Shown piece after piece: positions 4,178 to 64,000 of a stretch of DNA of 64,000 bases. Positions within the stretch are counted from its first letter, which is position 1, and each line of letters opens with the position of its first letter. Both the position numbers and the translations under genes were made by a program. The DNA comes from a virus: IMG/VR virus record IMGVR_UViG_3300020192_000008, positions 32,001 through 96,000 of that record; one strand, 5' to 3'. Under the pieces are notes generated by a model. That model had not been told where the DNA came from. It ran no database searches and saw only the letters and a list, made by a program, of their open reading frames with translations.

Positions 4178-4184
4178 CTCGCCC

Positions 4185-5696
4185 TCACTTCTTTCCGCGA
4201 CCCAGGATGTTCATGACGTCTTTGCCGAAGTGACCTCCGGCAGCCCCACTAACCGCGCCCATTCCAGCACCAATGGCCGTCGAAGCACCAGGGTGCTGCT
4301 TCGAGAAGTCCGCCATCCCAAGCCTCGCCTTTGACTGGGCAAGACTCAGAGACTCGGCAAACGACCGACTATCACCCTTGCTTTCGAGACCTTTGACCTT
4401 GTTCTTCAGGTCATCACCACCGCTGAACTGCTGGGCGTAACCAAGCCCACCACCGGCAAGAGCACCCAAGGCACCCCCAAGCAACTGCTCCTTCGAGACG
4501 CTGCCCATCTTCTGCTCACCACCTGGGGGAGCTGCTGGAGGAGGCGCTGCGGGGGGCTGACCTTGAGAAGCATCCTGTGGCGGTGCTTCTGCAGGAGGTG
4601 CCGCCGCCGGCGGAGCCCCACCAGGTGGCGCACCTTCAGGGGGTGGCCCACCTTGCGATGGGTTCTGAGGAGGCTGCGCTGCTGCATCCGCCGGGGCTTG
4701 CTGGTCCTGAGCCCCTGACTCCACGCCAGCTTCCTGGGTCGTGGCTGGAGGGGGAGGCTGCTGAGCCAGCTGCATGAGCGACTGCCGCATGGCCTGCATC
4801 GAGTCACGCATCTGGGCGGTGAGGCCCTGCTGCTGAATGAGCTCGTTGGAAGAAGCGAGTGTGCGCTGCATGGCCGACGTAGCAGCGGCCTGCGCTGCTT
4901 GAGCCGACTGCATGGCCTGCTGCTGAACCTGCTGAGCCTGCTGCATGCTGCTGTCGACGGTCTGCTGCAGCTGCTGGCTCTGCTGCGTCACCTGGTCGAG
5001 CTGCTGCTGCATGCCTTGGATCTGCTGGTCCTTGGACTGAGCTTCCTGCGAGGCCTGCTGGAACTTCTCCTTGTAGAACTCGCTTTGAGCCTGCTCAGCC
5101 CCGTCCGAACCAGCCTGCTCAGCAGCGAGGTACTGGCTGATGTCGCCCTGGGCACCGCCGGTGAGCTCGTCGAAGGCGCGCTTGAGCATCGCCGACGCCT
5201 TCTCGTGGTTCTTCTTGTAGGCGTAGGCATCTGCTTCACCGCCCACGTCCTTGCCGGCCTTACCACCAAGGTGCTGACCAAGAGCCGCTGCGGCTACCGT
5301 CGACAGGGCTCCGCCCTTGCCATGCTTGTGAGCTGCGTAGCCAGCACCGGCGCCCCCACCCAGACGACCCACCATCTCGAGCGCACGTTCGGCCCGAGTG
5401 TGGTCGTGGTGCTCGAACTTGGCCGCAAGAGAAGCCGTAGCCCGGCGCTTGCCAGTCTCGTACTCCTCATCTGAGGCGAGCTTGGTTCCGAGCTGCGTGG
5501 TGTAGTCGACACCCTCAGGGGTGTACGTCTTGGCCGGCAGACCGTTGAGCATCTGCAGCATGCGCTCGGAGTGGTAGCCCTCTGTGCCAGGCAGAACCTT
5601 CTCTGCGTAGGCAGGGGCTGCCTGCTTGACCATCAAGAAGTAAGCGGCTGCTTCTTCGAGAGGCAGTCCTTTGGAGAACATGTCGTCGAAGGTCAT
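4185..5696 (-). CDS. Putative internal head protein (Gln-rich coiled coil, glycine zippers, KxA motifs)
   Basis: 503 aa with VKQAA, TKLAS, EKASA and LKRAF motifs and a long Q-rich helix. Confidence 0.65.
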   Translation of the reverse strand: MTFDDMFSKGLPLEEAAAYFLMVKQAAPAYAEKVLPGTEGYHSERMLQMLNGLPAKTYTPEGVDYTTQLGTKLASDEEYETGKRRATASLAAKFEHHDHTRAERALEMVGRLGGGAGAGYAAHKHGKGGALSTVAAAALGQHLGGKAGKDVGGEADAYAYKKNHEKASAMLKRAFDELTGGAQGDISQYLAAEQAGSDGAEQAQSEFYKEKFQQASQEAQSKDQQIQGMQQQLDQVTQQSQQLQQTVDSSMQQAQQVQQQAMQSAQAAQAAATSAMQRTLASSNELIQQQGLTAQMRDSMQAMRQSLMQLAQQPPPPATTQEAGVESGAQDQQAPADAAAQPPQNPSQGGPPPEGAPPGGAPPAAAPPAEAPPQDASQGQPPAAPPPAAPPGGEQKMGSVSKEQLLGGALGALAGGGLGYAQQFSGGDDLKNKVKGLESKGDSRSFAESLSLAQSKARLGMADFSKQHPGASTAIGAGMGAVSGAAGGHFGKDVMNILGRGKK

Positions 5697-8636: not shown

Positions 8637-9194
8637 TCAGGTCGTGCCGTTACGGACGGCCCAACCCTGCATGAAACGCAGCTGACCGCTCGAGGGCAGC
8701 TTGGTGACGTATCCGACGACCGGGCCGTTGCTCGCGTAGCTCGAGCCGACGAGGCCCGAGAACTTGCGCGTGCCGCCCTCGGCCAGAGCGAGCGTGATGG
8801 TGCACACGCGCAGCGGCTGGAACAGCGTGGTGATGGCAGCGCCACCAGCCGCGCTCGACGCATCGTAGATGCGGGTGTTCCACTCGTACTGACCGAGCAT
8901 CAGCACGGGAACCTTCTTCTCGGCCGACGCCTGGATGTCGTACCGACCACGCTCAGCCCACAGGGGCATCGCGATGACAGTGGCCAGGGCGTCAGCAACG
9001 GTGACGTCGGTGGCGCGCTTGGCCTTGCCCTGCGAAGTACCCGGAGTCGAGTCGAGTGTGAGCCATTCGCCGTCGACAAGGCAAAGGGCGTTCATGGGGT
9101 TGACCAGCGTCGCATCAGCGAGCATCCAGTCACGACGGTGAGCCAGGTTGACGTCAGTCACAGGCTCGAAGTTGACCCTCTGGACAGTGGACAT
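8637..9194 (-). CDS. Probable capsid decoration/cement protein
   Basis: 185 aa, beta-rich, immediately upstream of MCP, with AGGAGA RBS. Confidence 0.5.
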   Translation of the reverse strand: MSTVQRVNFEPVTDVNLAHRRDWMLADATLVNPMNALCLVDGEWLTLDSTPGTSQGKAKRATDVTVADALATVIAMPLWAERGRYDIQASAEKKVPVLMLGQYEWNTRIYDASSAAGGAAITTLFQPLRVCTITLALAEGGTRKFSGLVGSSYASNGPVVGYVTKLPSSGQLRFMQGWAVRNGTT

Positions 9195-9232
9195 AGTATC
9201 TCTCCTGTTGAACTAGGCTTGGCTTCGAGCCG

Positions 9233-9604
9233 TAAGCCGATGGTTCCGTGAAGGAACCGAATGAAGTCGGACGCCCCTTCGGGCGCCTGCGTGTCGTTGT
9301 TACCGCCGACCAGATGGCCGATCTTCTCGCCCATGTTCGGGCCCACGAGATCAACCGCCGCAGCGATCTTCTCGAGCTTGCCCTCCTCGGCCGCCTTCTC
9401 CATCTGGGCGACTAGGCTCTCGTAGGGGACATCCGACTGGATGCCCTTCTCGTGCATCGCCGAAGCGACCTTCTCGGCCTCTTCGTGACGCATGCGGGCC
9501 TGGGCTTCCTTCTTCCAGAAGTCCCTTTCCCCGGCGAGTTGGGTGATCGCGGAAGCGCTCTTGGTGAGGAGGTCCTGGACCTGCGCGCTGCTCAGCTTGT
9601 TCAT
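9233..9604 (-). CDS. Small helical scaffold-like protein; ends at TTA (9233-9235)
   Basis: ATG 9604 with GGGGAG RBS; EKVAS, EKAAE and EKIAA motifs. In-frame TTA follows ...FLHGTIG. Reading it as Leu runs through the next gene's RBS and start. Confidence 0.65.
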
Positions 9605-9606
9605 GT

Positions 9607-11064
9607 TCAGCACTCCCCGCCGTCGAAGGCGTTCTTCTCGCGCCTGGGCGAATCTTTGCGCGTCTCTTTGTCCGCCTCGGAGGCGATCTTCTGGAGAAGC
9701 ATCTGGGCTGCCGCTTGCGCCGTCTGGTCAGAGGCGAGCTTGTGGCCAGCCTCTCCCGAGTGGGCGAACGCCTGCTGCAGCGTGGTGTCGGTGGCCTGCG
9801 TGAGAGCAGGCTCGTTGAAGTACTTGCCCAGCTCCGCTTTGCGGAGGCTGTAAGCCGAGTTGCGCTTGAGGTTGATGGCCGCCTCGTTCGAGGAGATCAT
9901 CGAGGTCTGGCTGCCGTAGCCGCCGGCGACAGGCTGACCGCCAGGCTCACCCGAGGCAGACGACTGGGGAGGCGTTGCCGCACCGCCGCCAGAGATCTGA
10001 GCCGGGTTGATGGCGTCTTCTGCCTGCTTGCGGAGACCGATGAGAGCATTGGCGAGAGACGCGCTCGCTGCCTTCTCCTCGGGCATCTCTTCATGGCGAG
10101 CGTTGAACGCCGTGTGGCCACCGAGAGCGCCAAGTGCGGTGTTGAGACCAACGCCGCCCTTGAGTGCGCCCATCGCAGCTTCACGAAGGTTGCCAGCACC
10201 CTGCATGCCCCGAAGAGCACCGATTGCCGAACCACCGAGAGCACCACGAGCAGCTGCGCCATCAGCCGAGTCAGCTCCGTAGCCGGCAAGAGCACCAGCC
10301 CCGCCGTATGCGAGACCCTTGCCGAGACCAGCAGCGGCACCACCGAGACCACCGAGTGCAGCTCCACCAGCTCCGCCCATGGCACCACGGCCAAGCATCG
10401 AAGCCTCGCTGCCCATCAGTCTCTCACCAAGAGCGCTGCCTGCTCCGCCCATGGCACCGAGGGCGCCACCTGCGAGAGCTCCACCACCAGCCCCGAGAGC
10501 GGCAGTCGTACCAGCTGAACGCATCACCGCGTTACGGAGACGCTCCGAGTCTTCCATCGCCTCTGGGTCTTCTTCCGCAACCTTCGACAGGGCGCGAGCA
10601 ACCTTCAGCTTCGCCGATGCGGTCTTGCCGCCACCGGAGAGAGCTGTCTGCTGCTGACCAGAACCGCCGGGGGGCGAGTCCATGGTGTTCTGCATCTGGT
10701 TGGCAGGGCCCGTGTTGGACGCCTGCATCCCCGGGTTCATCGGGGGCTGAGCGTGACCCTTGCCCTGGCCACCGGGGCCGGGGGGAGACTCACCACTCGT
10801 CGACTGGGAGACAGCGAGCGCGTTCGGGCCGGTACCAGGACCGATGTCCGAAGCCTGCTTGATCTGACCAGCCGCCCAGGCACATGCCTCCGCCAGCTTC
10901 TCAGCGTAGTCGGTGGGGATGCTCTGGTTGTCCTGCGTGTTGATGGGGGCAGCGGAAGCAGTCTTCTCGTGCCGAGCTGCCTCTGAGCGAACCATCCGCT
11001 CAGTAGCCCCTGCCATCGCTTCCTTGACGAGGTCTTGGAGCAGACCGCGATTGTGGGTTGGCAT
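9607..11064 (-). CDS. Putative scaffold/internal head protein with glycine-zipper insert
   Basis: 485 aa with at least 9 KxA motifs (EKTAS, EKLAE, IKQAS, GKTAS, SKVAE, EKAAS, RKQAE, HKLAS, QKIAS). Confidence 0.65.
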   Translation of the reverse strand: MPTHNRGLLQDLVKEAMAGATERMVRSEAARHEKTASAAPINTQDNQSIPTDYAEKLAEACAWAAGQIKQASDIGPGTGPNALAVSQSTSGESPPGPGGQGKGHAQPPMNPGMQASNTGPANQMQNTMDSPPGGSGQQQTALSGGGKTASAKLKVARALSKVAEEDPEAMEDSERLRNAVMRSAGTTAALGAGGGALAGGALGAMGGAGSALGERLMGSEASMLGRGAMGGAGGAALGGLGGAAAGLGKGLAYGGAGALAGYGADSADGAAARGALGGSAIGALRGMQGAGNLREAAMGALKGGVGLNTALGALGGHTAFNARHEEMPEEKAASASLANALIGLRKQAEDAINPAQISGGGAATPPQSSASGEPGGQPVAGGYGSQTSMISSNEAAINLKRNSAYSLRKAELGKYFNEPALTQATDTTLQQAFAHSGEAGHKLASDQTAQAAAQMLLQKIASEADKETRKDSPRREKNAFDGGEC

Positions 11065-15514: not shown

Positions 15515-16210
15515 ATGGATAAAAAACTCATGGGAAGCTGGCCCCGGCTGGTCTCCGTGCTGGAAGCAGCCGAGATGCTTTCGGTTTCTGTCGATCAAGT
15601 CCATCGCTGGAACCGGGATGGTCTACTAGAGGCTGAGTACCCAGAGGGAAGAAGAGGGGGGAAGTACTTCCAGACGGAAGACATCCAGACCCTCATAGAA
15701 GCTCGGGCCAGCAAGACGCTCTCTGACCATGATGTGAAGATTCTAGCCCTTCAGTCTCTGGTCTCCTCCAAGAGGGCAGAACGAAAACTCGATGAGCTGC
15801 TTGGGATGCTCGGTGTTTCGGACGTGAAGCTCGGTACCTCGAGGGAGGAGGTCTTGGCTTTCTTCGTCGAGGTAGAGGACGAGATCAAGGAGGGTGAGCC
15901 GCTCCTACCCGAGGAGGCGATCGGCTGGGCCAAGCGGATGCTGGGCATCACCGAGGAGTACCTGGAGCTAGTGAAGGAGCACACGTTCATGCTCGAGCCC
16001 TGGGTCCCGTACATGCAGCTCTCCAAGAAGCTGCACGACAAGTTCCCAGCAGGGCAGGCAGGGGCCTACCTCTCTCACGCCATCCGTAATCTTCGGCACA
16101 CGGCGTACTTCTACGTGCGTCGGGCGGATGGGGTGAGAGAGGCGACGAAGCGCTTTCCCGAGGGTGGCGTGACGAGCCAGCTCCTCGGGATCATGTTTCC
16201 GAAGAGCTAA
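15515..16210 (+). CDS. MerR/excisionase-type HTH DNA-binding protein
   Basis: LVSVLEAAEMLSVSVDQVHRWNRDGLL...F..EDI is a typical MerR/HTH_17 signature. Lone plus-strand gene in the virion module; the start may be ATG 15530. Confidence 0.7.
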   Translation: MDKKLMGSWPRLVSVLEAAEMLSVSVDQVHRWNRDGLLEAEYPEGRRGGKYFQTEDIQTLIEARASKTLSDHDVKILALQSLVSSKRAERKLDELLGMLGVSDVKLGTSREEVLAFFVEVEDEIKEGEPLLPEEAIGWAKRMLGITEEYLELVKEHTFMLEPWVPYMQLSKKLHDKFPAGQAGAYLSHAIRNLRHTAYFYVRRADGVREATKRFPEGGVTSQLLGIMFPKS

Positions 16211-19108
16211 CCCTTGGTTCGTTGGCCCCGAGTAACCGCCGAGGTTGGGGCCACCGCTCCGAGCGTTCTCTTTCTTCGGGGTGATGATGTCCGGCCTGGG
16301 GTGGATGATCATCGAGCCAACGAAGCAGTAGATGATAGAGTGCAACGCATCATCAGGCCGATCGGGCCTGTGCTGGTACTGGATCATGTGAAGAGACTGG
16401 TTGTACTCTGTGAAGATGTTCAGGATGTCTTGCCCGAACGGCTCACGGAACTCTTCCCACCTGGGGAACATGATCTGCTTGCGCTTGATGGCCGTGAAGA
16501 CATCGCTCACGACTTCCGTCTTGTGCACCTTCCAACGCTGCAGCTTACCGTCCCACTCGACCTTCTTCTTGTTACGGGCCATGTACTGGAAGCGGTGCAC
16601 GCGCTGGGTGCCGAAGCGACGGATCAAGTAGGCGTTGTTGTTGAAGCCACCGCCGTAGTCGCACCCGATGATGCGGACGTTGTACGCATGCAGGATGCGC
16701 TTGATCTTCTCGAGCTGGATCTCAGGGTCCGTGTCTTCACCCGTGAAGCGGTGGATGAAGAAGATCTTGAACTTCATCCCGTCGTAGTAGCCGAGACTCA
16801 TGACCGTGTAGCTGTTCTCGCCCGTGTTACCTTGGTACGCGATGCTTCCGTTACGCTCTGTGACGATGTACCCCGAAGGCACGGCGCAGCAGTACACCTT
16901 GCCCGCATAGGGGACGTGCTTCACCGCCGTGGAGGGGGTGTTGAACTGGTAGTCTCGGCCCTCCGACCACAAGGCTCTCCAGCGCGTCTTCCGGTTCCCC
17001 TCCGCAGGCTTGTGCAGCTTCACGGAGCACCGAAGACCGAGCTTTATGCAGATCTCCTGGAAGTCCTCGCACAGCCCTTTTGACGTCGAATAGAAGGCCC
17101 CTCCTGTGCAGCCCTCCCGAGGGTCCGTGTAACCGTCTCCGTCTACCAGGGCCTGAAACAAGATCCGAAGCTGCCTTTGGCCGAGGCCGAGGAACTCCCG
17201 TGGGATACGCTTCTCGTCCCCTTCGACCCCTACGTTCTGGGCGTACCACGCCCAGTACTGCTTGCCGTAAATGGTCCAGTTGACGTCCCCAGTCTTTGGG
17301 TTCGGGAACGCCTTGAACGAGACCCCCACCCGGTCGAGAGACGCCTGCATCTTGAGGTAGGTCTCGTGGTTGACCGTCTCCCTCTGCGACATCTTGAGGC
17401 AGGACGGGCGGCCCCCATCAAAGCAGACCCCGCCCTCTGTCACGAGATAGCCGAGTAGCTCCAACCAGTCGTCCATGGGGACGGTCTTGTCCTCAGAGCC
17501 CTTGTACCCAGGGCTCGTCGGCAGCCCCGGCAGCGTGAAGGCCTGCTTCTCCTCTCCTTGCCAGTCGACGTAGCCCACGAACTTGACGTTGCCGCCCCGT
17601 TCTACGAGTTCGCCCGCCGACTCGGTGAGCCACCGCTCTCCCTGGGAAGTCCCGACACGCATGCGGTGCGTATGGGTGATCATCAGATCGAGCCCCCCCT
17701 TGGTCTCGAAGTGTAGAAGTGGCTGGTCCCAGTCGCGTACCGTACGAACCTTCGGAGCCACGAAGGTCATCGCACGCGTTTCTGGATCCCACTGGGCTAC
17801 CTTGTCTTCGTCGGTGAGATCACAGAAGTACTTGAAGCCAGACTGCGTAAGAATGCGTGTCTTGTCATCGTGACAGCCCCAGTCGATGCCAGCGAAGATG
17901 TTGCCGGCGGTAGCCGTCTTGCGGATCTTCTCGAGGGCCGTGGGGTGCATCGTCAGCTTGGGGTCGCATGACTCCTTCAGCTGGCCCATGGTGATGGGCC
18001 GGAGGCCTGAGTCGTAAGACATCCCCAAGACTTCGTTGTAGAACTTGTCGCGGGGGTACCGCTCGTAGTCGAGCAGGATTTCCTCCCACGACCGCCAAGG
18101 CACCATCAGCTGGGGGATGCGGTAGCTCTCGAAGACCCCGTCACGGACCTGGTTGATCCACTTCGAGTCCTTGTGCATGGGGTCGATCTTCCCCCCGCAC
18201 TTCTCGCAGATGAGGCTCTTCTTACCGATGTTCTTCTCGCAGAGGATGTTCCAGTGCCGGCCAGCACCGCCACCAACGGAGGACCCGCAGTGGTCGCACG
18301 GCACCATCCACTCACCCTGCGTCGACATCGGGCGGCCCTTGGCCACGCCTGACCGGTAGAACTCGATGGGGTTGTCGAGCCCTTTGGGTGTGCCGGCGTA
18401 GATGAAGCGCTTGAACTTCTCCGGAGCGTGGCTTGTGCACTGCTCGATGACGGGGATGTTGTCGGCGAGAATGTCTTGGAGCTCGTCGAGGGTGAGCAGC
18501 CAGGCTGGGATGCCTCGGGTACGGTCGGCGTTGAGGAACGCATACCTCAAGGTGATCTTCGCCCGGTTGACGAACTGCTTCTCGAAGATGTTCTGCGACA
18601 GCATGGTCGTCGTGAACGTCTTCAAGACCTGGCTCGTCTCGATGGGCTCCTTGATACGGTCGACCGAGAAGACCTTCGTCTGCGTGGCTGACGGGCTCAC
18701 GTACAGCGTCTTGTACGCCGGCACGACGCACGAGTACGAGAGCATGATGTTGCCGATCATGGTCGACTTCTCGACCTGCCGGCCACAGAACAGGAGCACG
18801 CGCCTGGCTGGGGTGTTGTAGGGGCGGCGCATGTGCCGACGCCCCTCAAACGTGAAGTTCTCGTACCCCATACCGTCCTGCCGAGGCATCCGGAAGGCGA
18901 ACTCGGTGAACTGGCTGGGCAGGACAGCGGGGATCTTGACCGCTGCCCTGCGCTTCTCCTCTATCTCCCAGAAGTCCTCGAAGGGCTCTGGCTCAGGGAG
19001 CCAGGGCTTGCCGTTGTGCATCCTTCGGAGTTCTTCGTCTGTGAACTCTTCAGGCTCGAGGTCCTCTTCAGAAGGGACCGTGACGGGGTCAGGCTGGAAG
19101 CTGCTCAC
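16208..19108 (-). CDS. terL: Terminase large subunit (lambda GpA-like) with intein; ends at TTA
   Basis: GRQVEKST (Walker A variant), LTLDELQD (Walker B), GTP motif, CxxC...CxxC, GIDWG nuclease motif and C-terminal PDDALH. In-frame TTA at 16208-16210. Confidence 0.85.
16826..17875 (-). mobile_element. Intein with LAGLIDADG homing endonuclease in TerL (350 aa)
   Basis: Junctions GIDWG|CHDDKTRILT ... NGSIAYQGN|TGEN. Block B THTHRM; LAGLIDADG motifs LLGYLVTEGG and FQALVDGDG. Confidence 0.88.
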
Positions 19109-20450: not shown

Positions 20451-22628
20451 TAACGCCTGCTGGAACGCCAGCGTCTTGAGACCCTCGATGACATCCTCGA
20501 GGTACTTCACGCACTTCTCGAGAGGGCCCTGGGGGATTTTCGAGAGCCCGAGCCTCGACGACATCAGCAGCTCACAGAGCTTCGCCTGCGTGCTGTTGAT
20601 CTCCGGCAGGTAGGAGACGAACGTGTGGATGTTCTCGGGGTTCACGAAGCCGATGGAGAGGATCGTGTCGACCGAGGTGGGGTCGGGGATGAAGGCCGCC
20701 TCCTTGAAGAGGTTGCGCTTGAGGTCGAAGGCGGGGCTCGAAGCGAGCTTCTCCTGGGACTTCCTGCGCGAGGCCATCTTCACCGACTCGGCAGGCTGGA
20801 TGTGCCGGCCCACCCGGACGTCGACCGGCATGCCATGGGCAATCGCCTGGGCAAGCTTCGTCTGGGCGTAGCCGAGGTCTGTACCCAGGCCACCCAACAG
20901 GAAGAGCGAGTCGTCGAACGACAGGAAGTGCTTCTCGTCAGACGCCAGCTTGTCGATGGGGAAGCCCTCGAACGAGAAGCTGTTGACGCCCCCCGCCCTC
21001 ACGGTCACCGAAGCAAGCTTCCGCTGGGCGTGCGCCACCTTGTTCCCGCCCTCAGGGGCGCTCACCAGGACAACGCTTTCGGCCTTGCCCATGCCCATCC
21101 ACTTGTAGTCCTTGGGCAGGAGGAACGTACCCTCATCAGCCTGGGTGGGCTTCTGGATGTTGGGCTGCAGAGAGACTGTGCACTCGCGACCATCGTAGGT
21201 CTCGACGTGCAGCTTCTGCTCCCCGTCCGTGACCTTCCCCTTGATGGTCATGGGGATGGTCGCCTCTGTCTCGTCACCACTCTGACGAACGAACACGCCG
21301 GTGCCCGTGGGGGAACCGAACATGAGCTCGCCGTTGGTGCTCTGCAGGCTACCGGCGATCTCCGGCTGCACAGCCGCCGCCGACCCGTTCGTGAACAGGG
21401 CGATGGGCAGAACTGTGCCGTCGAGGTCAGTCAGGTTGGGGAATACGAGCCCCATCATCTCGGTGCCCTCCTCGTTCTGCACCTTGTACGTGCCGAACTC
21501 GGTGATGGGCTTGAGGTCTGCCAGCGGGGCGCCTTCACCCACGGCATCGTCAGTGACGGTGACCGAGCCATGCTCATCGGCATCCTGGGCGAGCTTCACC
21601 CCGAAGTGCTTGATGATGTCGCCTCGGCTGACGGAGTGAGCCTCCTTGACCTGCCAGTACTTGTGGTTCGCCTCCTTGACCCGGTAGCCCACGTTCTCCT
21701 TCGAGACCTGGATGACCGAGGGGCGGATGGCGCTCTCCATCGAGGAAGCCACCTTCTCGCTGGTCACCTGGTTGGTGTTCCAGATCTTGTTGATGGAGGG
21801 GAGGGTGGCGTGGGCGTTCTTCACGTACGCCTGTTGAACCCCAACGTCCTTCATCTCGTGGGCGAAGGAAGTAAGGTCGGAGCTCAGTGCTGTCGGAAGG
21901 ATGGCCTCGAGCAGAGAGGCTGACTTCTCCACACCAGTCAGGTCATGACCCGAGGTCTTGAGGTCAGACTCGTTCGGGTCCTTCTTGAAGCCCTTGAGCT
22001 TCTTGGCATCGACACCAAGCACCTTCGACAGGCGCTCTGCGAACTGCGCCTTGTTCTTGTCTTCGGCCGTCTTGGTCTCAACGTGCAGCTGCTCACGCAG
22101 GTAGTACTCGAGATCTGAGCTGGTCTTGCCCATCATCCCGCCGGCGCCACCCATGCCGCTGCCATCCCGGTGGGGCGGGTAGATCTGACTGGCCATCGAC
22201 GTGTCACCTGGCGTCTTGCTGGTGACATCGAAGGTCTGTGGGCGGAAGAGGGCTTCCTTCAGACGCCGCTCGGTGAGGGGAAGAACCTTCGAGTCACCAG
22301 TAACGATGAGGTCGAGGGGCTGAAGCTTCTTGTCCTTGACCACCACCGGGATGCGAACCGACTTCACGCCCACGGCGTCCTTGGCCTGGTCGCTTGCGCC
22401 TTGCTGCAGCTCGGTCTTGTTGGAGATCTCAATGTGGCCGAATGCAAAGCCACGCTCACCATCGATTCGATCCATCACCGTGTGAGGCTCGAAGTCCGAG
22501 ATGAAGGGGATCTGCTTGTACGCTTCCTGCAAGATCTCCTGCGACCACTGGTTCGGGTCTTCAGGAAGAACAGTCTCAGCGGCCGTCTTCTGGATCGGCA
22601 GGATGGAGTCGAGGTAGAGGTTCGTCAT
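20451..22628 (-). CDS. Large virion protein with many KxA motifs (725 aa); ends at TTA
   Basis: Two in-frame TTA codons (20451-20453, 20445-20447) lie just before the next GTG start at 20443. The standard code gives a ~500-nt overlap. Confidence 0.7.
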
Positions 22629-27400: not shown

Positions 27401-30400
27401 TCAAGACCGGGTCAACCTTGGCCATGGGAACGGAGTTGAGCTCCTTCATCCCGGCGGCCAGGTCCTTCTTCACGTCGACCTTCGAGAGCAGGTGCTGGAT
27501 GGCCCGACCACCGGTGTGGGCTGCGTCCTTGAGCTCGACGATCTTCCCCTGGTGGTTGATGCCCGACTCGCCGTGAACGATGGCGTCGAAGTCCTTCTGG
27601 GTCAGGCCCGTGAGACTGCGGATGGGGGCCTCGAACACTGGGTTCGGCACCGGCTCTGCGAGATCGATGTGGCTCCACTTGATGCCGCCGTGCCCACCGG
27701 TGAGCTTCTCATCAAAGAGACCACCAGGCCTGGGCTTGAGCTCACCGGACTTGTCGACCTTGGCTTCGAGGCGTTCAGCTGGCTTGGGCAGGGCCCTGCC
27801 AGCCGAGAGCTCCATCACATGCTTGTCCGTCAGGGGCGAGAGGATGAGCTCGTGGCCCTTCTTCTCGATGTTCACCCCTGAGCCCTTGAGCATGTCCTCG
27901 AACTTCTTGAAGGCGAAGGTGCTCTTGGGCGTGGGCAGAGGAGCGCCTGTCTGGATGGCGTTCCACACCTGCAGGTGCTGGCTTGGCCACTTCTTGCTCT
28001 CGTTGGTCTGGGGGTCTTCACCCTCCCCCTTCCACGTCTGCATCTCCCGGATGTTCGCCTTCGCCCCGTGGGCAAGCAGGGCGTACATACCGAGTGAACC
28101 GATGCGCTGACCTGAGCCGGGCTGCAGGTTCTGGTCATAGCGGTCACGGTTGGGTTGACCTGGAAGGCCCATGCCCGAAGCCACGGTGACCTTCTTGTCG
28201 ACCTGGTGAACCAGCTTGAGGATGTGCTGGTGACCCGTCATGGCATGCCCCAGTGATTGCCCCGTGACCGGGTCGATGAGCTCCTCGGTGTCGTGCAGGC
28301 CGTGGCTCTTCAGCTCCGCCTGCACCTTCGCCACCATGTCGACGTCCTTCTGAAAGGCCTGAACGACGTAGGGCTTACCCGTCTTGATGGCGATCTTCGA
28401 CGCTGCCGTCTCGAGCAGTTGGCTCACATTCATACGACCAGGCACGCCCGTGGGGTTGAGCGCTACCTCGATGGGCTTGCCATCCTTGCTGTGGGGCATC
28501 TCATGGTCGGGCAGAACCATGGTGACAATGCCCTTGTTGCCGTACCGACCGGCGAGCTTGTCGCCTGACTGCATGGGCTCGTGCGTCTTGACGTGTACCT
28601 GCAGGCCACCCTTGCCATTGGTGACAGAGACAACTTCCCCCTCAACCTCTCCCTCCCAGCGCAGGGACTTGTCGGCATGGCTGCCGGCCAGAGACTTGCG
28701 GATGGCCGAGACACCCGTCCTGTCCTTGAGCTCGAAGGGCTTCATGGCCAGGGCCAGGGGATCTCCAGGGGTGACCTTGGAGCCAACCTTGATGACGCCG
28801 TCGTCACCGAAGTTGACCAGCTGCTCCTTCTTGTAGACCCCGGGGTGTTGGATCTGAAACTTGCGGGTGCTCAGGATGGTGTCGGTGTCGACGGGCACCG
28901 TGTGCTTGTGCAAGTGCATCGAGGCGAGCTTCTTGGAAGCCGTCTCGCTGATGACAACGCCGTCCTCGAAGTTGTACCCCTTGAAGGGGATGAAGGCGAC
29001 GCGCAGGTTTGAGCCAAGCGCGAGAACGCCATCCTTCGAGTAGTTGGTGTCAGCGACTGTCTCGCCCTTCTTCACCTTGTCACCCACCTTCACAAGAGCG
29101 CTCGAGTGGAGCACGCTCTTCGTGTCATTGGTCGGGTAGTGGTTGTAGAGAGGGACGTCGTGCTTGTCGCCGTTCTTGTCCTTGATGACGATGTTGTCAG
29201 CGTGGATTGAATGCACGACACCATCAGCCGTTGCTTGGTGCGAAGCCTGGCTGCCAAGCACGGCCTCGAAGCTCTGAAGGCCTGGCGTGTAGACGCCGGT
29301 GCCCACCTGAACGAGAGGCGCTTCTCGGTTGACGAGGGAGATAGACTGCTCGATGTGGCGGGTGGCCATCGACACGCGGTTGCCCGAGCAGTTGTTCATG
29401 AACGGCACGAGGTTCGATGTCATGTTGAACACCTGGCTCGAGTGCTTCATGACGTAGTGGGCATCCTTGAAGGGGATGGGGCCCATGTCGTTGTCGTCTT
29501 GGGCGGCCTGCACCGTCTTGCTCAGTGGGACCGGCTTGCCGTTCTCCCACTTCACCTGGTCTGCCAGCACCACGCTTGACTTCATGAACAGAGCAGGGGG
29601 GACCAAGTCCATCTTGCCCGTCTTGAGGTTGTACAGGGGGACAACAGGATCGTTACCCAGCTTCCGTACACCGAGAGGCAAGCGCAACGTCACGCCAGTC
29701 TTCGAGCCTTCGGGCGTGTTCACGGGATCGAGAAAGCCGAAGTGGCTCTTGTTGAGCATCTTCGCTTCGTTGGTGACAGCCTGCTCACTCTGGATGCCGC
29801 CCGAACCCATGATGGTAGTCTGCATTGCAGAGCTCATCATCTCGACCGGGTTGATCTGAGAAGCCACACGAGCTGCAGAGTTCTTGTGGAACGACTGCTT
29901 GATCGGCTCGTTGAACATCTCGAGCTTTACGATCTCCCTGATGTCGCTCTTCGAGTTGATGTTCCTCGATGCCTTCATGGCGATGGTTCGACCAGCCGCC
30001 TTGATCTTGTCGTGGGCGAAGTCTCCAGCTGAACGCAGGTCCTTGAAGATGAGGCTGTCCCGGTCATCCTCTGGGTGACCCGCCTGCACCTTGAGCATCT
30101 TCTGCGTCGCCAGGTGCAAGGCCTCACCACTCACGTGATCGATGGGCTTGCCCAGCGTGACGGACGTAGCGTCAGTACGCATCTTCGAGTTCTGCATCGC
30201 CTCGAAGAAGTGCGTCTCAGCAACCTCCTTCGAGATAGGTGCCTCTTTGCGGTCTGACTTGTAGAAGCGCTCGAGCGTACCGGCGGCACCACGGGCATTC
30301 TTGTTGGCCGCGAAGATCTCTTTGCCCCAGCTCTTCTCGAGATCGTCGTCAGAGATGCCCATCGTCTTGATGAGCGGATAGAGCGGCAGTTTGCTCTTGT

Positions 30401-45047: not shown

Positions 45048-46430
45048 ATGGCTAGCAGCGAGCACCAGCTCATTTCCCTGATCATGAAGACAGGGGATTT
45101 GAAGACAGTACTCGAGTGGGGGATCACCGAAGACGATCTCCTGATGAACGACACGAACTCGGCGTTCAAGATCTTGATGTCGGTGTACACGAGCCCCGAT
45201 TCAAGGGGCGCTGTACTTGGGCCGTCATCAGCACTTGAGAGGTACCTGCCCGCGTGGCAGTTCGAGGTTGATGCGGGCATGACGCTCAACTTCCTTTGCA
45301 GCGAGGTGCGCAAGCGCAGGCTGTCGAAGGAGCTGAAACTCAAGGCACAGGCCTGCATCGAGTACGCAGACCTCAACCCTGAGGAGGCATTCAACCAGTT
45401 GAACGAGGCAGTGACCCTCTACCGCAACATCGATGCCGGCAAGTCAACAGACGTTGACCTGGCAACGGGCATGAAGAAGGTCATCGCGAAGTACAACAAG
45501 GCCAAGAACGGGCAGAGCATCGGCCGGTTCATGTGGCCTTGGAAGCCTCTGCAAGAGGCTACTGGTGGTGTGGCTGACGATGAGTTCGCCGTCTTCTACG
45601 GCAGGCCCAAGAGCATGAAGTCTTGGATCTTGATGTACCTCATCACCTTCGCCTTCGAGATGAACCAGAAGGTTCTCTTCTACACCAAGGAGATGACCGA
45701 CGAGCAGTGCTACCAGCGGATGGCCGCCATCATGGTCGGCGCTCTCTACCAGGACCTGCGCCTGGGCAAGCTGCCTGCCTTCCAGGAAGAGCAGCTGCAC
45801 GTCATCCAGCAGGTGGCCGAGGAGATGGCCTCGAAGAACAGGATGATCTGCCTCACGGCCAAGGACGTCGCTGGCAGGGACACCCCCAGCTGGCTGCGAG
45901 GCAAGATCGAGAAGTACCACCCCGACGTTGTCTTCGTCGACGGTCTGTACCTGATGAGCCCCGAGGCTCGCCGTAAGACGATGCAAGACCACGAGCGTGT
46001 TCGGGAGATCTCCCGTGACGTTCGACGCATCGTTCTCGAAGAGAAGGTCCCGCTGATGGCCACCATGCAGGCCAACCGGCAGGCAGCGAAGCACTCTGAA
46101 GGCAACCTTGATGAGATCGCCTTCTCTGACTCGCTCTCGCAAGACTGCACCATGGCTTGCCGGGTGATGTCCGACAAGCACCAGCCCACCATCAGCCTCG
46201 TGATGGCCGGCTCTCGTGAGTGGACGCTCGACGGGTTCCGGGTGCACGGCATCCCAGCGAGCAACTTCAGCTTCCACTCGGTTCTGACCAGCAAGGAGAT
46301 CGAACAGGTCAGGAAGAACGACGAAGAGGAGGACGAGCCGAAGGACAAGAAGCCCGTACGTCAGCCCCGCACGTTGGGGGCAGAGAAGCCTGCTCCCAAC
46401 TACAAGAAGACGCTCGAGAACATGCCGTTA
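45048..46430 (+). CDS. dnaB: DnaB-like replicative helicase; ends at TTA overlapping the primase ATG
   Basis: GGAGG RBS; GRPKSMKS Walker A, FVDGLYLM Walker B, MQANR and SDSLSQD. In-frame TTA at 46428-46430. Confidence 0.82.
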
Positions 46431-47398
46431 TGGACAGGCACTCGGAGGTACTTGCTATCGCACAGAAGTACCTTCACAAGGTCAAGAAGAGCGGGCCAGA
46501 CAACGTCATGGCGTTCTGCCCCTTCCACGACAACGTGAACACCCCGGCGTTCACGATGTCGTTGACCAAGGGCATCTGGTTCTGTTTCTCATGCCACGCC
46601 AAGGGAACACTCAAGATGTTCCTCAAGGCGATGGGCATAGGCGAGGGTCTTGTTCAGACGCACTACGGCTCGCTCATCGACGCCCTACGCAAGAACGTAG
46701 ACCCGGCCTTTGATCCCAACAAGCCTGGGGTCATCTGCCAAGAGCCTCTCGACGAAGCCATCCTCGGGTTCTTTCACGAGTGCCCGATGGATCTAATCAA
46801 CGAGGGCTTCACCGAGGAAACCCTGCTCCACTTTGGGGTGGGGTTCGACAAGAAGCACAACCGCATCACGTACCCCATCCGAGACTTCACGGGGAACCTG
46901 GTCGGCATCAGCGGGCGCACTGTTACAGGTGCCTACCCGAAGTACAAGGTCTACGACCTGGAGTACAAGGACTTCGGTCTGGGCGTCTACCACACCGACA
47001 AGTCTCGGTACCTCTGGAACTCGAGCGAGGTCTACCCTCAAGTCTACTTCTCAAGGGGCGAGAAGGTCGTGCTCGTTGAGGGCTTCAAGGCCTGCATGTG
47101 GGCCTGGCAAGCGGGTATAAAGAATGTGCTAGCCCTTCTAGGCTCATCAATGTCAGCCCAACAGAAGTGGGTGCTTGAGCGTCTAGGCGCACCGGTGTAC
47201 CTCTGGCTAGACAACGACGACGCCGGCCGTAATGGCACGAAGAAGATTGGCGATGATCTGTCCAAGTCCTTGGACGTGTTTGTCATCGGCTACGAAGAAG
47301 CGCAACCGAGTGATCTCGCCCTTGAAGATGTCCAGAGTAAAGTCGCCTCCGCGACGGACTATCACCTGTGGGCAGTAAGAAAGTACCTGAAAGGTTTA
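46430..47398 (+). CDS. dnaG: DnaG-like primase
   Basis: CPFH...CFSC zinc finger, GR...KY, and TOPRIM motifs VEGF and DNDDAG. Starts at a TTATG and ends TTA TGA. Confidence 0.88.
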
Positions 47399-48555
47399 TG
47401 AACATGGGCTCCTACGGCAAGACTGATATGAAGAACGCCCCGACCACCTTCCGCCAGTCGGTGGCCAGCCAGCAGAAACAGAAGCCCGAGAAGACTGGTG
47501 CTGGCGGGGGGAACGTCCCCTACTTCGTCAACCAGTTCAAACCCTCGACGGAAGAGCCAGACGTGGTGCGCCTCCTCAAGGGGGAGTACCCGGTCCAGCT
47601 GGCTGGGCAGAACGGTGAGCTGGTCGAGCAGACGCTCGCCTACTACATCTACCGCGAGCACTTCGATGGCCGTACCAACAAGAGCGCCATCTGCTCAGCG
47701 GGACCGTTCGCGATGGACCGCAAGAAGCGCCAGCCCTGCGATGGCTGCGACATCTACTGGGAGGAGCGGTCTGCGGGCAAGAAGCAGAACAACCGCATGT
47801 CCAACCGGGAGATGTACGTCTTCTCGATGCTTCATCACGCCAACTACGTGAAGACCGAGCAGCTCGACCGCAACACCGGCGCCGTGAAGGTGAACGATGA
47901 CGGCCAGCCGTACATGAACTGGGTACGGATGATGGCCCACGAGCGTGGGAAGTTCGCTGGCAAGGAGATGAAGGACGCCAACGCCCTTCACTGGGCCATG
48001 GGCTTCAACCACTTCAACGTCATCCGCGAGTACGACAAGCAGATCGGCAAGTCGTGCAGGGCGTGTGGTGTGAAGGCTGGGCGCAAGGGCGCTCACGAGG
48101 TCGGGGTCAAGAGCGAGGCGTGGTGTTGCCAGGGCTGCGGGGAGGCGCTCATCGAGGTCGACTCAACGGAGCTGGCGCCCAAGCAGATCGACGAGATCAC
48201 GTCTGACGTGGTCGAGTGCGCTGTGTGCAAGCGTGTCGGCTACCTGCAGGAGATGGTGTCCTGCACCGAGTGCTCGGATGGAACGCGCTCGGAGATCTTC
48301 GACGTGGACCTGGAGGTTCAGCGGGTGAAGCCTGCTGATGGTGGCAACCAGACGGTGCTGGCCATTGTGGGCTGGGCGAACCCGCACCCCATCGACCCTC
48401 GGCATGTGGAGATTGCCAGGCCGCTGGAGCTGCCGAAGATCTACGCGCCTACCCCGCTCGAGCGTCAGCACGAGCTCTTCGGTAGCTCGGGGAGGCAGCC
48501 GGTCACCGCTGGCAGCAAGCCCTACGGCGGGCCTCCGACTCTCGGCGGCAAGTTA
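47398..48555 (+). CDS. Probable ssDNA-binding protein with Cys clusters; ends at TTA
   Basis: Lies between primase and polymerase, with a gp32-like H..C..C..C pattern. TTA 48553-48555 immediately precedes a terminator. Confidence 0.5.
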
Positions 48556-54169: not shown

Positions 54170-54840
54170 CTGAAGGCAAGTCGATACGCATCCCGAGAAC
54201 ACTTGGCCCGGGTGGCCAGGTTATCGATCACCCTCCGGAAGAAGGACGCGGTCTCAAGGTCGACAAGGCAGCCCCTATCGGCGTCACAGCCGAGCAGAAG
54301 AAGTCTCTTCAAGAGCACTGGAACACCGCCAGTGAAAGCGAGAAGCTCTACGAGAAGGAAGGCTTCGGGGAGATCAAGAAGCCGACCTTCAACTGCCCTG
54401 AAGTTGATGAGCAGGTCGTCACCAACCCCGACAGCACCGAGTTCACCACCGTCTACGTTCACCTGCTCGGCTGGTACTCCTACTGCGCCGAGCTTCTCGC
54501 CAAGGTAGACGTCTACATCCTTCAGTACGAGAACCTCCTCGATGTACTGGGGGCTGAGACCCGTGACGTCGCTCGTAAGCAGCACGCTGAAGGCAAGAAG
54601 CCCACGGTCGACGAACTCAAAGACCGCCTTCTTCTCAACCCCCGCTACCTCGAGACCCTGCACGAGCTGCAGAAGTACCAGCAGCACAAGAAGCTGCTTG
54701 CGTCCCGCCTCGAATCCATCGATAGGAGCCTCAAGGTGATCTCCAGGCAGGTCACCATCAGGACCCTCGACATGGAAGCGCAGCGCACAGGCTCCAACCT
54801 CCCAGGACGCGGCTCACCCAACCGCTCTAGGTTCGGATGA
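54166..54840 (+). CDS. Coiled-coil protein, possible UvsY-like recombination mediator
   Basis: Helical, ends SRQVTIR. Function is inferred from recombination-gene context. Confidence 0.4.
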   Translation: MTEGKSIRIPRTLGPGGQVIDHPPEEGRGLKVDKAAPIGVTAEQKKSLQEHWNTASESEKLYEKEGFGEIKKPTFNCPEVDEQVVTNPDSTEFTTVYVHLLGWYSYCAELLAKVDVYILQYENLLDVLGAETRDVARKQHAEGKKPTVDELKDRLLLNPRYLETLHELQKYQQHKKLLASRLESIDRSLKVISRQVTIRTLDMEAQRTGSNLPGRGSPNRSRFG

Positions 54841-55280
54841 TTCGCCTCTCTGTCCCGTCGCTGCCCCCCTCTTCCAACAACGCCTACTTCAACAGGCCAG
54901 GAGGGGGCAGGTCCCTTACCAAGATCGGTGAGGGCTACAAGAACATCACCAAGGCGCATCTGCAGCAGAACTACCGAAGGGAGCTCATGGAGTTTCGGCC
55001 CAACAGGCCATACCTCATCGCAGTCACCTTCTACTTCCTCGACCTGCAGAACAAGACTTGGCCAAAAACAGCCGAGTCTCGGTATAAGCGACTTGACACA
55101 AGCAATAGGATCAAACTCCTAGAAGACGTGCTGAAGGACGTGAGCGGAGTCGATGACTCAAACACGCTCACGCTCATTCTCACAAAGACCATCGGTTCTC
55201 CTGAACGGACTGAGCTGGCCGTTTGGGACCTTGAGAAAGAAGAGAGCCCTTTCGATGTCCTCCTCAATACGCTCTTTTGA
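54837..55280 (+). CDS. RusA-like Holliday junction resolvase
   Basis: PPSSN..Y and D.SNRIKLLED.L......DD motif. Confidence 0.75.
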   Translation: MIRLSVPSLPPSSNNAYFNRPGGGRSLTKIGEGYKNITKAHLQQNYRRELMEFRPNRPYLIAVTFYFLDLQNKTWPKTAESRYKRLDTSNRIKLLEDVLKDVSGVDDSNTLTLILTKTIGSPERTELAVWDLEKEESPFDVLLNTLF

Positions 55281-55620
55281 GGAACTGCTCGGGGCCTGCA
55301 ACCACACCGAGCTGCACCAGATCTGCAGGCGTATGGACATCCATGTCAGACCGACCGCAAGCCGGGAAGACATGATCGACTACATCTGCGGGAATGATGA
55401 ACCCCCTCCGCCATGGCACGGCATCAATGCCTGGCGACATGCCCTCATGGGCTTCGTTCTCGACAACTGGGAACTCATACGTTCTCAGATCTCCTGCCCG
55501 GCTAAGTCTGGTGACCCGCGTGCCTGCTTCGGTTGTACCGATACGCAGGTGATGTTCTGTGTTGTCGACAATCACGACAACGAGTCTCTCATCCAGCTGC
55601 ACAAGAAGGATCAACCATGA
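55255..55620 (+). CDS. Cys-rich hypothetical protein
   Basis: 121 aa with an N-terminal Rho-N/HeH-like helix pair and CP.....C..C......C. Confidence 0.55.
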   Translation: MSSSIRSFEELLGACNHTELHQICRRMDIHVRPTASREDMIDYICGNDEPPPPWHGINAWRHALMGFVLDNWELIRSQISCPAKSGDPRACFGCTDTQVMFCVVDNHDNESLIQLHKKDQP

Positions 55621-56324
55621 ACGCTCCCGCAACCACGATGCCCAGCCCCGAGACCGCTCCCCGCACGCCCGAGGAGCTGACGAAGATGACCGTCTTCCTC
55701 CAGCGCAGGCTGGCCGAGCAGCTCAACTCGTCGGGCTTCCCGGTCTGGACGAGCGAGCCGGAGAAGACGGCCTTCATCACCGAGACCAGCGAGAAGCGCG
55801 GGATGATCTTGGCCGAGAAGCTGGCCGCCTTCGACAAGGCCCGTGGCGGTGCTCCCGCCGCTGCAGCTCCGGTGGCTACGGTGACCCCCATCACCCCGCC
55901 GACGGAGGCAACGCCGGCGCCCGCCACGGCCAGCAAGCGTCAGCCCAAGACGCAGGCGGCTGCACCTCCTCCGGCAGCTGCCCCCGCTGTCAGCGGTGAG
56001 CAGGGGGTGCTCTCGTCCGAGGTCGTCAACCTGCTCAAGACGGTCTCGACCGACCTGAAGAACCTGCACGGGATGACCGATGCGAGGATCGAAGGGGTGG
56101 AGAACCGTCTCGATGGCGGCAAACTCGTCACCAAGGGCGACCTCGTGGAGCTCAAGGACATGCTCACGGCGTCGATGCGCGTGCAGCAGGCCACGCTCGG
56201 GGTGCTCTGCCTGTTCGGGCAGGAGGTGCTCAAGGCCTCCACCCGTGACGTGATGGGTCCGGCGATCGAGGAGGCGAACAACGCCCTCGACGCTCTGGAG
56301 GAACTGGGCAAGGGAAAAGCATTA
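55617..56324 (+). CDS. Hypothetical protein (235 aa) ending at TTA; -1 frameshift product extends to TAA 56509
   Basis: AAGGA RBS and ATGA coupling. G_GGA_AAA at 56312-56318, TTA at 56322-56324 and hairpin at 56329-56353. Confidence 0.7.
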
Positions 56325-56507
56325 GCCAGACGCGGCCCTGGCCGGGCTGCGTCCCGCTGTCTTCTTCTGATGTCTTCCATCTCCCTGACGACCTTACCCA
56401 GGTCCCGACCGATGAGCTTGTACGAGCACTTGCCGCTTGCGGCGTGCGTCTCAAGGGCACGGTCACGAGGGAGCAGCTAGTTCAGACGGTCAAGCGTCTG
56501 AGCATCT

Positions 56508-56544
56508 AAAGACGGGGCCCTTCGGGGCCCCCTTCTTTTTAGCT
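56508..56544. terminator. Intrinsic terminator with UUCG loop
   Basis: GGGGCCC-TTCG-GGGCCCC then CTTCTTTTTAGCT, between convergent genes. Confidence 0.85.
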
Positions 56545-62866: not shown

Positions 62867-62954
62867 CTTCAACTCCTTCTCCCAGCTTCTCTAGCTCGGC
62901 TTTCGCATCATCCATCTCTCGCTGAAACCACGGCTTGCTGTTTTCATCCGCCAT
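62853..62954 (-). CDS. Small acidic peptide (33 aa) starting in a TTATG overlap
   Basis: AAGGAG RBS 5 nt upstream; MADENSKPWFQREMDDAKAELEKLGEGVEDGTT; TAA stop. Confidence 0.55.
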   Translation of the reverse strand: MADENSKPWFQREMDDAKAELEKLGEGVEDGTT

Positions 62955-64000
62955 AACGACTCCTTGATGAGTGCGAAGTTGTGTTCACCGGGGATGGTCT
63001 TGCGATGCTGGACCCACCCCTGGACATTGCCCAGGAAGTGCGTGCAACGATCGACGTCTATCCACGCCTTGTTGAGCTCATCCCACTCGTAGACGGGCTG
63101 GTAGAACATCTCGAGCTCCTTCTCCGTCATGGGCCTGCACGGGTGCTCGAGGGGGCTCATGTGCCCAGGCTTCACGAGCCTGTCGTAGAGCTCGAGGTCC
63201 TTGGAGATGTCGCGCTTGCCATCGTGGGCGAGGGCAGAGACGCGGGCGCAGCGGGCTGCGGAGACCTTCACCAGCTCAAGCCGTACCTCAGTCGTCGTGT
63301 CGCTCCAGGAGTAGTAGCTTGCGTCGCCACCGTCGACGTACGGCAGGTGCCACTCACCGTGCTTGAGCTGCTTGGGCTCGCTCTTGTCGTAGACATCCTT
63401 CATCATCCCCGCGACCATCTGCATCTCGGGTTGAGCGTTGGGGTCGCAACGCAGGGCGAAGAAGTTGTCCCACTCGGTCGCGGTACAGATCACAGTCTGC
63501 CAGCCCCACGGCTCGAGCAGGCGGTTGGCATGCTGCTTGTGTACAGCGAGGTTGAACAGGCCCTGAGCTGCACGGACGCACGCATCAAGCGCATCCGTCC
63601 AGTGCTTGGACGCTTCGTGGTTGGAGAGCTCGCTCATGACCTCGGTTGCCTGCATCCCCTTCTGGTTCTTGGTGAAGGCGATGGGTACGAAGGGGTTGGC
63701 CTTGACGCGCTCGATGTTCTTCTCGACGGGGATGGCCCTCGAGGAAGCTGAGTTACGGCTGTTGTGCACGACGACCCCATTCGCGAGGAAGTTGGGGTAC
63801 TTCCCCACGATCTCGAGGTCGTAGGTTGGCTCTTGGCCCCGCGAGACGATCTCGTCGATCCGTGCGAGAGACCCGTACAGATACGTGCCGCCCTGCCAGC
63901 CCTGCTTCTCGTGCATCGCGCAGTGGCAGTCGTCGCACAAGAGCGTGACGTTAGTCTCTTCCAGAGCCAGAGAAGGATCCTGATGCACCGGAACGACGTG
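62954..64000 (-). CDS. thyX: Flavin-dependent thymidylate synthase, C-terminal part with intein; ends at TTA
   Basis: SRNSASSRAIP, HKQ.ANRLLEP, NFF.LR....AQPE, SAARCARVS and H.SPLEH motifs; 5' end lies beyond the window. Confidence 0.82.
63761..64000 (-). mobile_element. C-terminal part of an HNH-containing intein in ThyX
   Basis: H..PV...N..LLC..CH...H HNH motif, then TYDLEI...NFLANGVVVHN|S splice junction. Confidence 0.85.

Follow-up and report, generated by a model that had tools for sequence, protein, structure and literature searches.

What becomes of ribosomes that reach the end of a phage gene where a slippery heptamer is followed almost at once by a TTA codon, while a second reading frame, one base back and devoid of an ATG, stays open up to a terminator? 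The question is raised by a locus in a stretch of viral DNA of 64,000 nucleotides (hereafter the window), which spans positions 32,001 to 96,000 of IMG/VR record IMGVR_UViG_3300020192_000008, a virus record of 107 kb with an estimated completeness of 58%. A first-pass annotation, made from the letters of the window alone, had proposed a programmed −1 frameshift cassette giving two isoforms of one protein, with and without a nucleic-acid-binding tail, and pausing at UUA as something that might tune their ratio. The comparative evidence described here – from the site, the tail and the selection acting on it – supports the two isoforms and very probably reflects a programmed −1 ribosomal frameshift, one that a family of large uncultivated phages has conserved. 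The same locus bears on a further and less secure proposal, namely that TTA ends translation in this phage.

The features of the locus are collected in Table 1. The heptamer G_GGA_AAA stands in the X_XXY_YYZ register, the zero frame around it reading ...CTG GGC AAG GGA AAA GCA TTA GCC..., with TTA as the second codon past the heptamer. If the standard code applies, translation in this frame continues for 52 codons beyond this TTA, up to a TAG at 56478–56480, to give a protein of 287 amino acids (P0001) whose read-through codons are rich in Arg, Ser, Leu and Cys. No stop interrupts the −1 frame between 56249 and its TAA, and from the heptamer onwards it encodes 65 residues; it holds no ATG, GTG or TTG before the codons of a WPGC motif, the first such triplet being a GTG about 21 codons ahead of the stop. 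The periodicity of GC content at third codon positions does not separate the frames past the heptamer. The first-pass annotation had read the position and register of the heptamer, the distance to the TTA, the lack of an ATG and the open −1 frame ending directly before a terminator in the same way, and all of these stand.

Table 1. Coordinates, in the window, of the frameshift cassette, its neighbours and further TTA codons discussed in the text
Feature	Position	Strand	Description
RusA-like Holliday junction resolvase gene	54837–55280	+	Pfam RusA, E 3.6e-9; PHROG 140, E 8.6e-10
Partner gene	55255–55620	+	N-terminal SAP-like motif; CPAKSGD...CFGC cysteine motif
Zero-frame open reading frame	55617–56324	+	ATG at 55617; 236 amino acids if TTA 56322–56324 terminates; ends ...GKGKA
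Shine–Dalgarno-like GGAGGA	56297–56302	+	9 nucleotides 5′ of the heptamer; from sequence
Slippery heptamer G_GGA_AAA	56312–56318	+	X_XXY_YYZ register; GGA 56313–56315, AAA 56316–56318
−1 frame extension	56312–56509	+	63 residues beyond GK; TAA 56507–56509; predicted trans-frame product of 297 amino acids
Zero-frame TTA	56322–56324	+	at the position of the relatives' TGA/TAG/TAA; probable zero-frame terminator
Downstream hairpin	56324–56358	+	10-bp core 56329–56353, loop TGGCC, 3 flanking pairs
WPGC motif codons	56339–56350	+	overlap hairpin loop and 3′ arm; W and P in at least 90% of tails
SAP/HeH-like helix–extended loop–helix domain	56390–56506	+	tail residues 27–65; AlphaFold2 model
Predicted intrinsic terminator, directly after the tail frame	56514–56540	+	stem with 7 G–C pairs, then T run
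Window TTA examples	16208–16210, 20451–20459, 46428–46430, 9233–9235, 62954–62956		

Is such a heptamer more than an accident of composition? Across the long open reading frames (ORFs) of this genome, GGGAAAN occurs in register at 6 of 49,474 codon positions, and even where a Gly–Lys dipeptide is given, the chance of the heptamer is about 7%. Searches with the frameshift gene itself as bait retrieved no DNA relatives from viral, metagenome or genome contig collections, and the comparison therefore rests on loci found with the adjoining partner gene as bait: 64 in all (7 from IMG/VR and 57 from metagenomes), of which 54 hold a gene of the frameshift family and 46 a complete copy, the latter forming the comparative set. 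In 43 of the 46 the heptamer GGGAAAA or GGGAAAC stands in register, the two forms being found in 28 and 9, respectively, of the 37 distinct relative cassettes. The choice of synonymous codons is just as constrained. The Gly codon of the heptamer is always GGA throughout the family, a codon that makes up 20% of Gly codons in these genes, and the base before it is always G; as second codon the family has AAA or AAC to the exclusion of AAG, though AAG accounts for 75% of Lys codons. G_GGA_AAG and G_GGA_AAC are both established as shifty heptamers (PMC5009743). The absence of AAG would fit hosts with a tRNA-Lys(CUU), in which A_AAG is not shifty. The most constant neighbour of the heptamer is a zero-frame stop close by, separated from it in the 37 cassettes by 0 (11 cases), 1 (18), 2 (6), 3 (1) or 7 (1) codons.

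The −1 frame is conserved too, and as protein. All 46 complete relatives have a −1 ORF of 47–76 codons with the conserved domain, and the 38 distinct tails (that of the window included) align over their length: the GK dipeptide is followed by a variable stretch of 5–15 residues, the motif WPGC..P...D..E and a helix–loop–helix pattern (L..L....L..LA..LG, about eight residues, then R..L..RI+R). The ratio of non-synonymous to synonymous change (pN/pS), calculated for 13 pairs, is 0.13–0.47 for the −1 frame of the tail in two close clades and 0.60 in the diverged pair L002/L025, compared with 0.7–2.3 in the zero frame and 1.0–5.7 in the +1 frame; purifying selection thus acts on the tail only in the −1 frame. 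The first-pass annotation had made its case depend on two kinds of conservation, that of the heptamer and that of the −1 frame, and both are found in the relatives. Entry into the tail frame is also constrained from upstream. In three relatives the −1 frame is closed shortly before the heptamer, at a distance of 0 codons in L053, 1 in L038 and 3 in L045, so that ribosomes must enter it at the heptamer itself.

Proteins in the databases show the other side of this arrangement. An exhaustive HMMER search with the 234-residue body of the gene product found 65 homologues, most of them 215–260 amino acids long, with matches that in nearly all cases end no more than a few residues short of the C-terminus. 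Among 31 aligned homologues, 29 end in ...GK (in one case GN) plus 0–3 residues, the exceptions being P0029 and P0041. None of the 65 carries a C-terminal extension, including four longer proteins that are fused to the partner at the N-terminus. Searches of GenBank phages with tblastn gave no match for the body and only chance matches for the tail; word-based searches for proteins of similar or greater length gave no match to the tail and no fused form, the latter being weak evidence.

Two kinds of element that might stimulate slippage surround the heptamer. Downstream, the hairpin announced at 56329–56353 folds as predicted, with GACGCGGCCC and GGGCTGCGTC as the arms around the TGGCC loop and with flanking pairs that put the start of the helix 5 nucleotides past the heptamer. 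Its folding energy (RNAfold) is −36.6 kcal/mol on 96 nucleotides, with a z-score of −2.2; the 50 nucleotides downstream give −3.8 against dinucleotide shuffles. The claim of a stimulatory hairpin holds less well for the family, in which downstream structure is enriched (mean z −0.72 versus −0.07 in controls; p = 0.003) and not universal, the strongest hairpins being those of the window, L013, L010 and L039. The sequence TGGCC recurs in nearly all cassettes and falls, according to lineage, in the loop or in one or the other arm (5′ or 3′), for which reason the idea of one RNA structure conserved throughout the family was dropped. Upstream, the Shine–Dalgarno (SD)-like GGAGGA is a possible stimulator of the dnaX type. 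Over the family, the energy of the duplex with the anti-SD sequence between positions −20 and −4 averages −5.3 kcal/mol, compared with −2.8 kcal/mol in gene-body controls (p = 6e-7), and values of −6 or below are found in 50% of the family and 13% of the controls.

What would the shift add to the protein? In the AlphaFold2 model built from the alignment of 38 tails, which has a predicted local distance difference test (pLDDT) score of 86, two helices (residues 33–42 and 53–63) frame an extended loop. Foldseek returned no significant E-values for this model; its matches with low root-mean-square deviation (rmsd) were the SAP domains of MANF and CDNF, with that of Hcc-1 lower in the list. Superposition with VIA-align gave Z 4.5 and rmsd 1.5 Å for the SAP domain of CDNF, Z 4.1 and 1.4 Å for that of MANF (both over 37–39 residues), Z 4.3 and 2.1 Å for the Rho N-domain (1a62), and Z 2.7–3.7 for a group of SAP-type domains (LEM, SF3B2, Hcc-1, SLX4 and Ku70). 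The likeness to HeH, SAP and Rho-N helix pairs that had been read from the −1 product thus reappears in the model, which among low-rmsd matches comes closest to SAP, Rho-N and LEM domains, albeit with weak scores. The tail profile also aligns with the N-terminal motif of the partner protein (hhalign E 6.8e-5, probability 63%). By its modelled fold, the tail would be SAP/HeH-like, as distinct from a proven member of the family, and it probably binds DNA or a partner protein. In the AlphaFold2 model of the body (pLDDT 79), a confident four-helix N-domain (residues 10–78) gives way to a disordered Pro/Ala linker and this to three long helices; the body is a helical and probably oligomeric protein.

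A number of observations weigh against a programmed frameshift with a SAP-like extension, and they touch each of its parts. As regards the tail, the domain is small and predicted, and all its superpositions stay below Z 5, the values of 3.0–4.5 reached by the best low-rmsd matches being the ceiling for a domain of this size; no Pfam SAP, HeH or Rho_N match rises above threshold (Rho_N appears below it in 2 of 38 tails, with a best E of 0.042, and HeH in 1 of 38, with an E of 0.047), and the tail profile finds nothing significant among PDB sequences. Neither was a relative of the body found in Pfam, PHROGs, the PDB or the ESM Atlas; Foldseek and VIA-align, too, returned nothing for it beyond generic helical hairpins. 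As regards the stimulators, the downstream hairpin varies in position and form between lineages, most GGGAAAC cassettes have no significant downstream structure, and the enrichment of SD-like sequences is confounded in that it may merely reflect acidic codons. Finally, three relatives (L041, L052 and L065, with gene ends at 3700, 3641 and 1022) keep the tail in the −1 frame and lack the canonical heptamer, and in L004 (5466–5621) the zero-frame TAA overlaps an ATG of the tail frame as TAATG. The first three have degenerate slip sites (CTGGGGGAA in L041, GCAAAAACC in L052 and GGAGAAAAC in L065) and may use slippage in the P site only, or less efficient sites; the tail of L004 could also be made separately, by translational coupling.

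This last case points to the strongest competitor of the frameshift, which is nonetheless unlikely: the tail might be a separate small protein, made by restart after termination or from a non-canonical start such as the ATT at 56321–56323, which overlaps the TTA as ATTA. The zero-frame stop is indeed always within a few codons of where the tail frame would start, and besides the overlap in L004, a canonical start lies between the heptamer and WPG in 4 of 38 cassettes. However, 27 of the 38 have no ATG, GTG or TTG in the open −1 frame before the motif, and reinitiation would leave unexplained the fixed GGGAAA[A/C], the invariant GGA and the avoidance of AAG. Somewhat less likely again is slippage of RNA polymerase on the A run, whereby a minority of messenger RNAs with an extra A would yield the long isoform. 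The run does lie at the shift site, and the extra base would give the same protein as a −1 shift; yet it is only four A long (three in the GGGAAAC sites, 9 of 37), and the conservation of the GGG triplet and of the codon register is what tRNA re-pairing, as opposed to polymerase slippage, would call for. To our knowledge, transcriptional slippage sites require much longer runs.

The two remaining readings are scarcely credible. An assembly or sequencing indel could have split one plain fused gene, there being a homopolymer at the junction where one extra A would fuse the frames – the very case that had been named as fatal to the proposal – but the 46 relatives, which come from many samples and were assembled independently, all have this two-frame arrangement and its zero-frame stop, and the database searches, as described above, gave neither an extended homologue nor (as weaker evidence) a fused form. 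That the region past the heptamer is a 3′ untranslated region or regulatory RNA, with the hairpin as a minus-strand terminator (on that strand, the hairpin and the complement of the A run do score terminator-like), is contradicted by selection specific to the −1 frame, a conserved protein motif, a confident fold and the real terminator 200 nucleotides downstream. Taken together, the in-register heptamer, the conserved tail (startless in most cassettes) and the fixed synonymous sites leave no room for an indel, for an untranslated region or for a separate gene of the ordinary kind.

A programmed frameshift at this site would work as follows. Most ribosomes would end the zero frame just past ...GKGK, at the TTA, to give a protein of about 236 amino acids (or 287 under the standard code), while a fraction would slip back by one base on G_GGA_AAA. 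The slip would be a tandem one, with the P-site tRNA-Gly moving from GGA to GGG and the A-site tRNA-Lys from AAA to AAA, and would probably be aided by the GGAGGA upstream and by the hairpin of 10–13 bp that begins 5 nucleotides downstream. Slipped ribosomes would then read 63 codons to the TAA at 56507, producing a minority isoform of 297 amino acids in which the WPGC linker is followed by the SAP/HeH-like helix–loop–helix domain. As the body is probably oligomeric and its gene lies next to RusA and to a partner with which it is fused in some phages, frameshifting would fix how many subunits carry the SAP domain, relative to those that lack it, within a single complex of this DNA-metabolism module.

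The neighbourhood of the gene gives some idea of where such a complex might act. Pfam and PHROGs place a Cas4-like exonuclease upstream, followed by a gene of unassigned function, the RusA-like resolvase and the SAP-like/Cys4 partner, which shares the bases ATGA with the frameshift gene, the stop of the one overlapping the start of the other; downstream come the terminator, which appears from its sequence to close the transcription unit, and then a convergent gene. What had been called a recombination operon is thus borne out as a DNA-metabolism module, and it is from this gene context only that we infer a role of the frameshift gene in DNA metabolism. RusA flanks the gene pair on the left as a conserved neighbour (in L002–L008, a gene resembling RusA by eye stands directly before the partner), and the trio of RusA, partner and frameshift gene is kept among relatives. 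In four database proteins (P0025, P0031, P0032 and P0033), the partner is fused in frame to the frameshift-gene family. The conservation of the trio, together with the fusions in several phages, argues that partner and frameshift protein would act together. L002 likewise has a single ORF (3980–5047) made up of the SAP/Cys4 partner and the frameshift gene.

We now return to the TTA. Its description as a stop fails under the standard code, by which the zero frame simply runs on to the TAG, and gains support from comparison. The window TTA lies at +1 codon from the heptamer, which is the commonest position of the stop among the relatives (18 of 37), the next standard stop being at +53. In this genome, TTA accounts for only 25 of 32,726 codons in long ORFs, with 16 of these 25 located in the final fifth of the ORF (Kolmogorov–Smirnov p = 3e-5). 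The codons CTA, ATA and TTG are evenly distributed in this genome; among four related genomes (G001–G004), TTA is uniform in three and, in G001, nearly absent (0.22 per 1000) and free of 3′ skew. The skew is therefore specific to TTA and to this genome.

The positions of these TTA codons are also telling. Three genes – TerL, a virion gene of 725 amino acids and the gene at 9158–9613 – have TTA exactly at the stop of their homologues in at least one of the four related genomes. In the helicase gene, the TTA coincides with the stop in G001 only and is 3–16 codons off in the other three; four further genes have TTA within 1–2 codons of the homologues' stop. In all these comparison genes, the next standard stop comes 13–250 codons beyond the TTA. 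The total comes to about nine genes with an in-frame TTA at the homologues' stop position, the frameshift gene included, and no TTA was found inside the conserved alignment of a real gene. The 287-residue read-through protein is present in a public protein collection, so we take the TTA to be present in the deposited sequence. A sequencing artefact turning TAA into TTA through base modification or a specific motif was considered and dropped, the contexts of TTA ends and TAA ends sharing no motif and TGA and TAA being abundant still. Gene overlaps under the two codes were uninformative with crude gene picking.

On this evidence, it seems somewhat more likely than not, with distinctly less assurance than for the frameshift itself, that TTA ends translation in this phage and no longer stands for leucine. 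It would do so either by true release-factor reassignment or by stalling at an unassigned codon. The standard stops TAA, TAG and TGA are all still in use, TGA and TAA abundantly, and the 107-kb fragment (58% complete) contains no gene with an RF-1/RF-2 domain and no tRNA genes. No other gene tests the idea that UUA is a stop as cleanly as the frameshift locus does.

Some further observations concern TTA usage and the genes compared. A TAA on one strand is a TTA on the other, and two convergent gene pairs have such a triplet as their common end, one at 16208–16210 of the window and one at 27634–27636 of G000 (window coordinate about −4366 to −4364). The primase ORF (46220–47401, plus strand) ends with TTA directly before TGA (TTATGA), and its TTA end therefore tells nothing either way. 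G001, the record to which L003 belongs, has 61% GC, TAA at 3 of its 126 stops and TTA at the low frequency given above; such usage would be consistent with a clade in whose hosts UUA is hardly decoded and is a plausible starting point for that of the window phage. The large terminase of the window (15971–19108, minus strand) has an insertion of about 350 amino acids (residues ~412–761), which is common to G004 and absent from G001–G003, where the flanks are contiguous, and which may be an intein or a similar insert.

If the reading offered here is correct, the cassette would represent a −1 frameshift family that is new, has been deeply conserved and belongs to a DNA-metabolism module of phages, as opposed to a tail chaperone. 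We did not find it described in a review of frameshifting (PMC5009743), in the PRFect paper (PMC10885494) or by full-text literature searches. It would be a case of recoding in tailed phages away from their structural genes, in a module linked to RusA. It would also mean that annotation misses the SAP-like domain, as the database proteins returned all end at GK or within a few residues of it, without the tail. The AAA/AAC-never-AAG signal provides a natural body of data from which the rules that govern frameshifting in high-GC hosts could be drawn. Taken with the gene fusions and the SAP-bearing partner, the presence of two isoforms would suggest a complex in which stoichiometry is fixed. In addition, the locus would lend codon-level support to TTA terminating translation in this genome.

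How does the cassette compare with known systems? The closest in outline is the G/GT pair of phage lambda, in which a −1 shift on G_GGA_AAN near the 3′ end, with a zero-frame stop a few codons later, yields a minority product with an extra C-terminal domain, an arrangement conserved across distant phages (PMC5009743). In contrast with lambda G/GT, the gene described here has no match to a chaperone in PHROGs or Pfam and no homology to those proteins; it does not lie between tail genes and instead adjoins the Cas4-like exonuclease, RusA, the partner and the terminator; its added domain would be SAP/HeH-like and not a T domain; and the third codon is AAA or AAC, never AAG.

In bacterial dnaX, an SD-like element about 10 nucleotides before the heptamer, the slippery heptamer itself and a hairpin about 5 nucleotides after it direct the production of two isoforms, tau and gamma, in a set ratio; the −1 frame stops at once, so that the shift removes domains. 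The layout of SD-like element, heptamer and hairpin is shared with the window, as would be the making of two isoforms of one DNA-metabolism protein. However, the −1 frame here runs for 63 codons and would add a folded domain, the heptamer is a different one and the proteins are non-homologous. The cassette thus belongs to neither lambda G/GT nor dnaX. With SAP, HeH, LEM and Rho-N domains, the tail shares its superposable residues 27–65 and the pattern L..L...L..LA..LG; it differs from them in the conserved, WPGC-containing linker ahead of the domain, and its binding to nucleic acid is putative.

For TTA, the comparison is with organelles, to which documented changes of UUA to stop are confined and in which they are tied to changes in RF2 or RF1 (PMC12574857); a report of UUA as a stop in a phage or bacterium was not found in the literature searched. 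In the mitochondria of thraustochytrids (NCBI table 23) and the plastids of peDinoflagellates, the codon occurs only at the stops of homologues and is absent from conserved interiors, and the evidence from the window is of the same kind as that in PMC12574857. The differences are that the window comes from a bacteriophage, that its 107-kb fragment holds no release-factor gene and that the standard stops are still used. If true, a UUA stop in this phage would be a sense-to-stop change of a sort so far reported only in organelles, and this part of the findings could be categorically new.

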